A stretch of 64,000 nucleotides of DNA from Ignavibacteriota bacterium (lineage in GTDB: Bacteria > Bacteroidota > Ignavibacteria > UBA10030): assembly GCA_003170475.1 (NCBI GenBank), contig PMZI01000051.1, forward strand, positions 249 through 64,248, read 5' to 3'. How positions within the stretch are numbered: the first letter of the stretch is position 1; every line of letters begins with the position of its first letter. Below the pieces are notes generated by a model. That model ran no database searches, was not told the DNA's origin, and saw only the letters and a list, made by a program, of their open reading frames with translations. Of this stretch, positions 51,241 through 52,142 are shown piece by piece. Both the position numbers and the translations under genes were made by a program.

Positions 51241-51513
51241 TGATTGCGAGACTGCGTCCGACGAGAATTGAAGACGACCGGCGAGTGTTAAGTTGAATAC
51301 CCGTACTGGAAAACCGTATTGCCTTCAGAATCATGTTTTCGTATCTTAACAAGAGAAGGCGAGAGGCCGTAGCATCGTTGTTGATCAAGGAGAGCTGGCC
51401 CGCCTGCGGTATGAGAAACAACCTCCGGCGGGTAAACAGAACGGTCCTTCGACTTGTCCCGACGAAGAAGGTCGGGACTCGCTCAGGACAATTCTCAGCT
51501 TTGTCAAGGCTTT

Positions 51514-51628
51514 GGAGAGCTGGCAGAACGGCTATTGTCCCGAAGGGATGGCTTCGCCACACCAGTCTTGCCCCGCTCCGAAGGAGATCCTCCGGAAAAG
51601 GGGTCCCTTCGGGAAAAACTGGCGTCCG
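51514..51628 (+). pseudogene. Degenerate duplicate of the 5' half of tRNA-Ser(TGA) carrying two hairpin-forming insertions
   Basis: TGGAGAGCTGGCAGAACGGCTATTG (25 nt) is identical to the 5' end of the intact tRNA at 51938. It is followed by a 22-nt insertion, CACCAGTCTTG, a 43-nt insertion inside the anticodon loop, then AAAACTGGCGTCCG (matching the anticodon stem 3' strand and variable-arm start). Sequence then diverges. A possible further fragment (GGAGAGCTGGC at 51389) lies upstream. Confidence 0.6.
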
Positions 51629-51636
51629 CAGGAACC

Positions 51637-51930
51637 ATGATACCCTGTGCATACATTTTGAAGAGCTTGAAGGACGGACACTTCTACTACGGCAGTACGG
51701 GGAACCTGCTTCAGCGGCTGTCTGCACACAATGCGGGAAAAGTGAGATCGACGAAGGGAAGGCGACCGTTTGTTCTGCACTATTTTGAGGAGTTCAAAAC
51801 TATTCGCGATGCCCGCAAGCGCGAGAACTTCTTCAAGAGCATTGCTGGATATCAGTGGTTGCGCAATGAGAGGATCATAGAAAGACCTCGTGTTGTGCCA
51901 GGATCCGCTGACATTGCAAACAAAAATTGA
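51637..51930 (+). CDS. GIY-YIG nuclease family protein (YhbQ/UPF0213-like, ~97 aa)
   Basis: MIPCAYILKSLKDGHFYYGSTGNLLQRLSAHNAGK...FVLHYFEEF.....ARKRE...K gives GIY/YYG-x(9-11)-YIG-like spacing, a conserved Arg and a Glu. It starts 9 nt after the pseudo-tRNA fragment and ends 8 nt before tRNA-Ser(TGA). Confidence 0.75.
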   Translation: MIPCAYILKSLKDGHFYYGSTGNLLQRLSAHNAGKVRSTKGRRPFVLHYFEEFKTIRDARKRENFFKSIAGYQWLRNERIIERPRVVPGSADIANKN

Positions 51931-51937
51931 TTTTTCT

Positions 51938-52020
51938 GGAGAGCTGGCAGAACGGCTATTGCACCAGTCTTGAAAACTGGCGTCCGTAAGGACTTGGGGG
52001 TTCGAATCCCTCGCTCTCCG
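51938..52020 (+). tRNA. tRNA-Ser(TGA)
   Basis: 83-nt cloverleaf: GGAGAGC acceptor, CCAGT-CTTGAAA-ACTGG (anticodon UGA), long variable arm CGTCCGTAAGGACTT, GGGGG-TTCGAAT-CCCTC T-arm, discriminator G. Confidence 0.85.
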
Positions 52021-52115
52021 CAAAACTACGTTCCTGGGAAACGGAACTTCGTTTTGCAGGCAGGCCTAATCGCAACGTAGCATCATGCCTTCATGGATCC
52101 CAGGTTTTGGATCAG

Positions 52116-52142
52116 GCGTCTCGAGCAGTGAGGCGCTTTTTT
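52116..52142 (+). terminator. Rho-independent terminator after tRNA-Ser(TGA)
   Basis: GCGTCTC-GAGCAGT-GAGGCGC hairpin (one G:U pair) followed by TTTTTT. Confidence 0.6.

Follow-up and report, generated by a model that had tools for sequence, protein, structure and literature searches.

Why does a bacterial tRNA gene stand downstream of broken copies of itself, with a nuclease gene set between the copies and the intact gene? The question is raised by a stretch of 64,000 nucleotides (here called the window) of contig PMZI01000051.1 from an Ignavibacteriota bacterium (GenBank assembly GCA_003170475.1), in which two partial copies of a tRNA-Ser gene, split by hairpin-forming inserts, are followed by a gene for a small GIY-YIG nuclease and then by an intact tRNA-Ser(TGA) gene. 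We find that this locus is one copy of a cassette that is widespread in the Bacteroidota-Ignavibacteriota-Calditrichota-Chlorobiota (FCB) group, and that its inserts belong to a family of double mini-hairpin modules placed with nucleotide precision in tRNA-derived sequence. From comparison of sequences, the cassette may represent a selfish nuclease gene associated with tRNA genes, resembling the phage gene segB, combined with double-hairpin elements acting at the level of DNA, an explanation to which we would give slightly less than an even chance.

An intact tRNA gene, a nuclease gene and two interrupted tRNA copies

The intact tRNA-Ser(TGA), which we take to be the functional partner of the copies, lies at window positions 51938-52020 (like all cassette features described here, on the + strand), as a preliminary description of the window had placed it. 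It was called by ARAGORN (51938-52021) and by the Rfam tRNA model (51938-52020, 54 bits). That description had also reported that the first 25 nt recur exactly at 51514. The repeat is real, but it is 24 nt long (GGAGAGCTGGCAGAACGGCTATTG), the 25-mer having included one shared T located 5' of the tRNA. GGAGAGCTGGCAGAACGGCTATTG occurs at exactly two sites in the 64 kb, 51514 and 51938; zero sites would be expected by chance, and 100 shuffles gave no match even when three mismatches were allowed.

The proximal copy (copy 2) is made up of three blocks. The first (51514-51537) corresponds exactly to nt 1-24 of the tRNA, and the second (51560-51570) exactly to nt 25-35, i.e., the 5' strand of the anticodon stem and the loop up to the second anticodon base. 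The third (51615-51635) covers nt 36 to about 56, i.e., the 3' strand of the anticodon stem and the variable arm; it is exact to 51628 (nt 36-49), has 86% identity thereafter, and ends 1 nt before the ATG of the nuclease gene. These exact blocks bear out the proposal that the upstream units are derived from a tRNA. The junction with the open reading frame (ORF), previously placed in the anticodon region, has to be moved, because the copy runs on to around nt 56 in the variable arm.

Two inserts separate the blocks. The first (module 1; 51538-51559), whose 22-nt length was given correctly before, splits the copy between tRNA nt 24 and 25 and reads TCCC-GAA-GGGA + TGGC-TTC-GCCA. The second (module 2; 51571-51614) follows nt 35 in the anticodon loop and has 44 nt, not 43, one A being ambiguous. 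As we read the sequence, it consists of an outer module, CCCC-G..AA-GGGG + TCCC-TTC-GGGA, with an inner 22-nt module, CTCC-GAA-GGAG + ATCC-TCC-GGAA, sitting within the GAA loop of the outer module's first hairpin. Exact matches to TCCCGAAGGGA and its reverse complement occur in the window only at 51538 and 51604.

The weaker third copy, reported at 51389, was also found. This distal, degenerate tRNA-Ser copy (copy 3; 51389-51512) starts with the 11-mer GGAGAGCTGGC, equivalent to tRNA nt 1-11 (51389-51399), followed by a 38-nt hairpin insert (51400-51437), the sequence AGAACGG (51438-51444), and a further 8-bp hairpin, GTCCCGAC/GTCGGGAC (51456-51478). The 11-mer occurs three times in the window (51389, 51514 and 51938; 0.06 expected), and the RNA fold of copy 3 has a z score of -3.9. 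Its insert, GGAGAGCTGGC followed by CCGCC...GGCGGG, is also present in two relatives (L002 and L008 in the survey described below).

The nuclease gene (51637-51930, ATG at 51637) encodes a stand-alone GIY-YIG protein of 97 aa from the Slx1/UPF0213 branch. It does lie between the fragment and the intact tRNA, as had been noted, but the spacings needed correction: the ATG comes 1 nt after the last tRNA-derived base, and the stop codon is 7 nt 5' of the tRNA.

The arrangement recurs across the FCB group

A scan of one genome per species confirmed at least 583 genomic loci. For a survey of their context we fetched 82 loci (numbered from L001) from Bacteroidota, Ignavibacteriota, Calditrichota and Chlorobiota. 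A tRNA gene stood beside the ORF on the same strand in 74 of the 82, usually within about 100 nt. The link between small GIY-YIG genes and tRNA genes in Bacteroidota, which the preliminary description had mentioned, is thus real and very strong, and the combination of a tRNA fragment with a GIY-YIG gene recurs widely among relatives. The partner was mostly tRNA-Ser, with all four anticodons represented, and in six loci tRNA-Glu(CTC). On the other side of the ORF, nearly all loci carried a partial or full copy of the same tRNA. Where the tRNA lay downstream there were 5' fragments upstream, and where it lay upstream there were 3' fragments downstream, the two kinds being equally common. Such an arrangement is compatible with a nuclease gene duplicating a portion of the tRNA that hosts it, in keeping with the earlier suggestion of an element carrying a portion of a tRNA. 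Full-text searches of the literature found no description of this arrangement of tRNA copy, GIY-YIG gene and module.

The closest relative with known context (L001; 72% amino acid identity) has the same layout as the window, i.e., a distal copy, a proximal copy with both inserts, the ORF and tRNA-Ser(TGA), whereas its flanking genes, encoding a hydrogenase and an H+-PPase, are unlike those of the window. Between these two loci the leader is about 95% identical and the ORF about 70% (at the DNA level), and the few differences in the leader fall in hairpin loops.

Duplicates of this type might instead be the decayed att sites of an integrase-borne element with the GIY-YIG gene as cargo, or the products of random tandem duplication. 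Integrases that target tRNA genes classically cross over in the anticodon and T loops, which we counted in favor of this explanation, and the arrays of 3' fragments described below resemble repeated integrations. However, there is no integrase in or near any locus, nor did we find any sign of the integrase-type integration that had been envisaged for the window. Only an ORF of about 300 bp, or nothing, lies between the repeats, so that the "element" would itself measure only about 300 bp. The parity of 5' and 3' fragments also speaks against such an origin, as do the inserts, which form a conserved, covarying family rather than products of decay, and the blocks, which stay identical to the partner tRNA. 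We regard it as effectively excluded.

Nor did the interrupted copies belong to a known RNA family. In the window, covariance models from Rfam gave only tRNA matches at E<=10, and the same was true at the gathering score in 20 further loci and at E<=1 in ten Pedobacter-type loci; the Pedo-repair family was checked specifically in the Pedobacter loci.

The inserts are double mini-hairpin modules

Across the surveyed loci we extracted 90 insertions, all interrupting otherwise collinear and mostly identical tRNA blocks. Their net lengths were 22 nt (45 insertions), 20 nt (18), 18 nt (5), or about double these values. A module consists of two tandem mini-hairpins with stems of 3-4 bp and loops of 3 nt, the consensus being TCCC-GAA-GGGA followed by TCCC-TTY-GGGA. 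Covariation was tested on 69 distinct 22-mers, in 33 of which the search pattern had left the second hairpin free. With the two-hairpin model 96.7% of positions were paired and all eight pairs showed double changes, a level of pairing reached in 0 of 500 shuffles. A long pairing, giving a single 9-bp hairpin per module, was rejected (75% paired, with no covariation across the 69 modules).

Module 1 of the window is a member of this covarying family, and L001 has the same module with a change only in a loop. Module 2 is likewise conserved in L001, and inserts of 36-45 nt occupy its site in L001, L002, L015, L024, L051 and L058. The preliminary description had seen in the displaced, insert-bearing copy a possible structured leader. 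The inserts are neither idiosyncratic decay nor a leader peculiar to this locus; they represent a conserved double mini-hairpin family whose members occupy matching cloverleaf positions in hundreds of loci, on either side of the ORF and even where there is no ORF. It had also been proposed that inserts 1 and 2 could pair with each other. The minimum-free-energy fold of the window sequence does use this pairing, but with a z score of only -1.3, and comparison lent it no support, a GAA to AAA change in insert 1 of L001 being uncompensated.

The pair closing the loop was 5'-C...G-3' in 132 of 138 module hairpins and G...C in 4, compared with 195 CG and 171 GC in control hairpins elsewhere. The loops are strictly 3 nt long and 76% A/T, C-GAA-G being frequent. 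The GIY-YIG nuclease domain of I-TevI recognizes the cleavage motif CNNNG with an A/T-rich center (PMC12774661). The C-NNN-G apex of the modules matches this motif, and may be regarded as a lead to the function of the modules rather than as proof.

The modules as a class are symmetric under reverse complementation: whichever strand is read, the purine-rich loop precedes the pyrimidine-rich one. They show no excess of G-U wobble pairs. Wobble asymmetry was uninformative as a means of telling RNA from DNA (5 G-T against 12 A-C, the latter mostly at one inherited position). Complementarity between the two loops or the two stems of a module did not rise above marginal frequencies, and templating from the local T stem was rejected because the module stems are unrelated to the T stems of, e.g., tRNA-Pro or tRNA-Val copies. 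The symmetry, the strict 3-nt loops and the lack of G-U excess, together with the occurrence of modules both before and after the ORF and where an ORF is lacking, are hints that they act at the level of DNA, as are their nesting and the precise gain or loss described below.

A different role, as RNA, has to be weighed at this point. The module-bearing, tRNA-like RNAs might be decoys or antitoxins that hold the nuclease through their C-NNN-G tips, somewhat as in type III toxin-antitoxin systems, or might regulate its translation, in which case the real substrate of the nuclease may be tRNA or tRNA genes. The copies are in the same transcription unit as the ORF, the hairpins covary as a folded single strand would, and the motif of the nuclease domain sits at the hairpin tips. 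The leader is also more conserved than the ORF, perfect hairpins are kept in copies that have no ORF, and the UPF0213 branch is linked to tRNA enzymes, all of which would suit an RNA function. Against this, modules are found both 5' and 3' of the ORF as well as at ORF-less loci, G-U pairs are not enriched, an RNA function offers no rationale for the reverse-complement symmetry of the class, the repeats are not separated from the ORF by a terminator as they are in type III systems, and no PADLOC model was matched. Overall, we consider an RNA decoy unlikely.

Modules are confined to tRNA copies and inserted at precise positions

The sites of insertion were highly restricted. The anticodon loop received 34 insertions, and in 28 cases the insert follows the second anticodon base (nt 35). 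The T loop received 22, all after nt 56 (TTC/GAA). A further 20 were in the D loop, 13 at the base of the D stem or at D-stem junctions, and 1 in the variable arm, whereas there were none inside the acceptor, anticodon or T stems. The inserts were nucleotide-precise and had caused no target-site duplication. No DNA motif shared by the sites was found, the only regularity being that the preceding base was usually G. Modules were also seen at +1/+2 of the tRNA copy, between the duplicated promoter and the acceptor stem (L017 2330-2400; L073 around 2340-2380), and insertion sites therefore include this 5' junction in addition to the loops. Within 600 nt of ORFs (118 kb) there were 56 perfect double hairpins, compared with 8, of chance-like appearance, in 260 kb elsewhere. 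No module of the consensus type occurred in the 260 kb of flanks, and in the window they were found only at the locus itself.

We also scanned metagenome contigs for an exact pattern in which the T loop is split by TCCCGAAGGGA+N11 (22 specified bases, with less than one chance match expected). This gave 87 stretches, of which 80 loci were analysed. They revealed T-loop modules in spares of tRNA-Glu, Ser, Arg, Pro, Val, Met, Ala and Cys, those of Arg, Val, Pro, Met and Cys including copies with no ORF; across all loci, modules occupy D, anticodon, variable and T loops and more than ten tRNA isotypes. A family ORF lay within 1 kb in 40 of the 80 loci, and always on the tRNA strand (52/52 ORFs). 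The other 40 had no GIY-YIG gene in the available sequence, about 17 of them being well inside contigs, and their hairpins were as intact as those of the others.

Two of these loci are informative about how modules come and go. L095 (on a 653-kb contig, around 3250-3800 in module orientation) has three tandem 223-nt units, each with a leader, a tRNA-Glu(TTC) and a terminator, and no ORF between them. The first tRNA is intact, and the second and third are identical to it save for a 22-nt module in the T loop. Because these units are otherwise identical, gain or loss of the module must have been nucleotide-precise. In L141 (around 7368-7760, module-oriented) a GIY-YIG ORF and a tRNA-Pro(CGG) are followed by four tandem 76-nt units, each comprising the 3' part of the tRNA with the T-loop module TCCCGAAGGGA+TGGCTTCGCCA, whose two hairpins are also those of module 1 of the window.

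The loci with no nuclease gene raise the possibility of two independent things, i.e., autonomous mobile modules that build up in any redundant tRNA copy, similar to the double-hairpin elements (DHEs) of fungal mitochondria, and a housekeeping UPF0213 gene that resides in tRNA operons by chance, the duplicates having been formed by slippage or unequal crossing-over. Half of the T-loop-module loci would fit this, as would the tandem ORF-less arrays (L141, L118, L162 and L095), and DHEs are known to occupy rRNA gene loops and to be conserved between species (PMC10085805, PMC2800124). However, where a GIY-YIG gene is present it lies no more than 1 kb from a module and on the same strand in every one of the 40 loci, the size class of the module (18, 20 or 22 nt) follows the clade of the ORF, and the motif at the module apex is that cleaved by a GIY-YIG nuclease. 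There is also no dispersal elsewhere in the window or in 260 kb of flanks. Independence of modules and nuclease is, in our judgment, decidedly unlikely.

Deletion of the module in silico restored a callable tRNA in 9 of the 80 loci, and in one of these cases the tRNA seems to stand alone. L086 4643-4675 (- strand; the same locus as L111, contig Ga0082335_1000809) is a lone full-length tRNA-Cys(GCA) with one T-loop module and with neither an intact tRNA nor a GIY-YIG ORF in 10 kb, and ARAGORN calls it as tRNA-Cys only after deletion of the 22 nt. The insert may be tolerated or intron-like, or there may be a second tRNA-Cys elsewhere in the genome. More generally, modules could be mini-introns removed from tRNA precursors by protein, with the GIY-YIG protein as the endonuclease and a host ligase, so that full-length interrupted copies would be functional. 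The restorable tRNAs and the lone tRNA-Cys are compatible with this, as are the full-length copies with three modules in L012 and L056 and the placement of inserts in loops, like that of non-canonical archaeal introns. Yet an intact partner stands next to nearly all interrupted copies, and most copies, including both in the window, are truncated and unable to yield a tRNA. The inserts are two self-contained hairpins with no bulge-helix-bulge geometry, modules also occur at +1/+2 and nested in one another, and the GIY-YIG fold is known as a DNase fold. Splicing is thus highly improbable as a general explanation.

The nuclease belongs to a large chromosomal family

The identification of the 97-aa ORF as a GIY-YIG protein like YhbQ/UPF0213, made originally by inspection, held up well. 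The protein matched Pfam PF01541 (GIY-YIG) with E=2.2e-13 (50.7 bits; cut-off 22.6), and its best profile matches in PDB were to 1zg2 (4.9e-12) and 1ywl (7.2e-12), followed by SLX1 (7cq2, 2.6e-3), the I-TevI domain (1mk0) giving only 0.4. It scored 18.6 bits with the NCBIfam group I intron endonuclease model, below the cut-off of 56. The conserved catalytic residues are in place: across 32 family members Y6, G19, R27, H31, N32 and E63 show no variation, and Y17 and Y18 are nearly invariant. The FCB subfamily carries the signature HNxGKVRSTKGRRP. The typical length is 80 aa, with hundreds of close relatives in Bacteroidota, Ignavibacteriales and Calditrichia. A profile search of 1.84 billion cluster representatives gave a family size of 4140 clusters (50% identity) at E<=1e-10.

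The family is chromosomal. Among 2.9 million viral contigs there were 2 relatives and no modules, the match to PHROG was weak, and PADLOC models of anti-phage defence gave 0 families at E<=1; on these grounds we rejected an origin in phage or defence systems. The first clue to the family came from long, mis-called N-termini of relatives, which translate the upstream leader (GELAERLLS.RDGFATPVLPRS...EKGSLREKLASA). A genuine N-terminal extension was rejected: the leader is not coding, because inserts of 22, 20 and 44 nt would shift the reading frame and MxxxYIL is where the proteins of the family begin. A survey of GIY-YIG proteins in 2006 described prokaryotic Slx1-like members with TrmH fusions and operons with COG4123 methyltransferases, and did not mention a context of tRNA copies (PMC1564403).

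The nuclease gene may be expressed from the tRNA promoter

The arrangement of promoters and gene ends is suggestive. The Bacteroidota -7 box TAnnTTTG was not found between tRNA and ORF in any of 24 tRNA-ORF-copy loci, and it was present 5' of the copy in 25 of 39 copy-ORF-tRNA loci; the intact tRNA of the Pedobacter type has no box of its own. In the window a consensus scan found a promoter-like site, TTAACA-18-TAGCAT (51346-51375), just 5' of the first tRNA copy, a position analogous to that of the TAnnTTTG box, and a putative promoter there agrees with the earlier idea that the copy nearest the promoter serves as a leader. The two window copies together would make a structured 5' leader of about 250 nt.

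Where the tRNA comes first, the start codon follows its 3' end by 0-1 nt in 8 of 28 cases (L007, L013, L019, L029, L032, L064 and L070 being among such loci), and RNase Z-type processing at these loci would release a leaderless mRNA. Where it comes last, the stop codon lies 0-8 nt before its 5' end in 12 of 39 loci and the ORF overlaps the tRNA in 5 of 39; in loci of the Pedobacter type the stop codon is either at this distance of 0-8 nt or inside the tRNA. From this spacing we infer that the ORF would be transcribed from the tRNA promoter and freed by processing of tRNA ends, sometimes as a leaderless mRNA.

In a rough tree of the ORFs, sequences grouped by tRNA identity and module size class, Glu loci forming one clade, Ser-GGA loci with 20-nt modules another, and loci with 18-nt modules a further group; the orientation of the tRNA flips within clades. 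A compensatory change in the anticodon stem distinguishes L016 from its sister locus L017, and because each spare copy follows its own tRNA, gene and copies must undergo concerted evolution, in which the modules are nevertheless kept. More than eight loci contain extra ORFs that are truncated or frameshifted, and L058 and L066 have tandem arrays of ORF and copy. We read these features as signs of selfish behavior, along with the unrelated flanks and the unequal conservation of leader and ORF in the window and L001.

A possible mechanism and its nearest precedents

Phage SegB is the nearest functional precedent. It is a GIY-YIG endonuclease whose gene lies among phage tRNA genes; it cuts inside tRNA genes at RAWTSGAAC and drives recombination-dependent segmental amplification of tRNA genes together with segB (PMC13096335). 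By our own reading, RAWTSGAAC is the complement of GTTCSAWTY and would correspond to T-loop sequence. SegB and the FCB family share the GIY-YIG domain and a gene embedded among tRNA genes. However, SegB is phage-borne and larger, has a DNA-binding region and is associated with many isotypes, with no hairpin modules or interrupted copies reported, whereas the FCB family is chromosomal and consists of a bare domain of about 80 aa from the Slx1/UPF0213 branch.

By analogy with SegB, the FCB nuclease would be a selfish, homing-endonuclease-like protein that breaks the DNA of tRNA genes. It would probably read structure, i.e., the hairpins, or a cloverleaf extruded from heavily transcribed genes, together with the CNNNG motif. 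Recombinational repair would then duplicate segments of the tRNA along with the ORF, giving units of the type copy-ORF-tRNA or tRNA-ORF-copy as well as tandem arrays, and the ORF would borrow the promoter and end-processing of the tRNA for its own expression. The modules would be double-hairpin elements at the DNA level that survive only in redundant copies, abolishing the tRNA function of these spares. They would also cut the direct repeat, which could otherwise loop out the ORF, into short blocks (mostly <40 nt), would protect the copies against conversion by the intact gene, and probably provide the site that is bound or cut by the nuclease.

For the modules themselves, the nearest precedent is provided by DHEs of fungal and sponge mitochondria, which are short, G+C-rich, made of two stem-loops, presumed to be mobile and conserved across species, and which reside between genes as well as in the variable loops of genes for structural RNAs, being retained in transcripts (PMC10085805, PMC2800124). 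The modules similarly fold into two adjacent stem-loops with compensatory changes, and their precise presence or absence (L095), their spread over many loops and isotypes and their nesting suggest mobility of the DHE type. DHEs differ in being mitochondrial and dispersed, and as described they are linked neither with particular tRNA loop positions nor with a CNNNG apex or a given nuclease gene. They are also reportedly longer, at about 26-79 nt (Paquin and colleagues, 2000).

A single event in the mitochondrial atp6 gene of Allomyces macrogynus offers another parallel: a GIY-YIG ORF was reportedly carried in with a copy of the 3' end of the target gene (Paquin and colleagues, 1994). In that case a free-standing GIY-YIG gene arrived with a partial duplicate of its target, leaving a functional copy and a displaced fragment beside the ORF, but the target was an organellar protein-coding gene, there was one event rather than a family of thousands, and no loop-specific hairpin plugs are known from it. 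The UPF0213/YhbQ and prokaryotic Slx1-like proteins are the best sequence matches, being small stand-alone GIY-YIG domains with genomic links to tRNA enzymes; for YhbQ/YazA, however, a context embedded among tRNA genes with interrupted copies, fixed in the FCB subfamily, is not reported. In REP/REPIN-RAYT systems, a nuclease or transposase gene, domesticated or selfish, is likewise flanked by short hairpin repeats, thought to be handled as single-stranded DNA. RAYTs are of the HUH/Y1 type and not GIY-YIG, however, and REPINs number hundreds across a genome, whereas the modules are confined to tRNA copies. Archaeal multi-intron and split tRNAs also have short inserts at several non-canonical positions, including the D and T loops, but these have bulge-helix-bulge motifs and are spliced from sole-copy genes, whereas the FCB copies are mostly truncated, sit beside an intact partner and show no such motif.

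Several observations weigh against a selfish, DNA-cutting cassette. The window protein and its relatives of about 80 aa have only the GIY-YIG domain, with no DNA-binding domain detected, and the link of the UPF0213 branch to tRNA-modifying enzymes hints at RNA substrates. The intact neighboring tRNA keeps every putative target, which leaves immunity unexplained, and the insertion sites of the modules have a structural context in common but no DNA motif. The C-G closure of the triloop hairpins could be purely thermodynamic. The tracking of tRNA identity by ORF clades could reflect old vertical paralogy rather than homing, and no presence/absence pair was obtained between close relatives, contigs with the glutamyl-tRNA synthetase (GluRS) of the window all being identical and from the same strain. 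Finally, the lone tRNA-Cys of L086/L111 would be better explained by an intron-like or tolerated insert.

Free-standing selfish GIY-YIG genes and double-hairpin elements are each of a kind already known, and the novelty would lie in their combination. A stronger claim, which we think rather unlikely, is that modules and the bare 80-aa GIY-YIG protein form a new structure-guided pair of nuclease and mini-element. The enzyme would recognize shape, in the form of a hairpin tip with C-NNN-G and of the cloverleaf loops of the tRNA gene, in place of a long sequence, and would bring about the insertion or removal of modules at loops with nucleotide precision and no target duplication. There is a real chance that the pairing of module and nuclease is categorically new. 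If the structure-guided pair were real, the modules would be the smallest known site-specific mobile DNA, and, taken furthest, the idea would make any module in a sole-copy gene, e.g., the lone tRNA-Cys of L086, a protein-processed intervening sequence of a bacterial tRNA. If the cassette is selfish, it would be a chromosomal, phylum-wide counterpart of SegB that parasitises the most conserved genes and reshapes tRNA loci. The loop-specific double-hairpin family, previously unnoticed, gives a handle on how a GIY-YIG nuclease with no targeting domain might find its substrate. It also bears on the function of uncharacterised UPF0213/Slx1-like proteins, and possibly on the engineering of compact nucleases around the CNNNG motif.

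Annotation of cassette loci and neighboring features

The hairpin leader is a systematic source of mis-annotation: gene callers routinely extend ORFs into it, and many database representatives carry 20-60 false N-terminal residues. In the window, open frames run through the leader at 51333-51788 (+) and 51454-51930 (+), and public gene calls for the species of the window show either an ORF of 151 aa read in a different frame or a GIY-YIG protein lengthened at its N-terminus to 120 aa (P0001). tRNA finders, in turn, miss or mis-call interrupted copies. A 95-nt "tRNA-Glu(ctc)" called by ARAGORN at L019 2739-2833 is really a module-bearing tRNA-Ser copy, and an interrupted tRNA-Glu copy at L035 2383-2473 passes the Rfam tRNA threshold with 33 bits. 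The repeats of the cassette also appear to disturb short-read assembly. Assembly breaks or N-gaps fall inside the tRNA in L003 (around 2810-2860) and at the starts of L174 and L175 (equivalent to window position 51998).

Directly 3' of the window tRNA is a hairpin (52020-52057), GCAAAAC...GTTTTGC around GTTCC/GGAAC, which is partly conserved in L001 and L015 and may be a trailer-processing or attenuator element. The unit is closed by a terminator-like hairpin and T-run, as had been described, but at 52114-52148. It is followed by gltX (GluRS), beginning at 52168, and glnS (glutaminyl-tRNA synthetase, GlnRS), an ordinary pair (52168-55328) that overlaps by 4 nt (53616-53619), so that the cassette heads a pair of aminoacyl-tRNA synthetase genes. 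A second tRNA-Ser gene (GCT; 48981-49071), 2.9 kb upstream, is accompanied by no nuclease gene, copy or module; in other genomes this isoacceptor bears the cassette (L023, L040, L046, L048 and L051).

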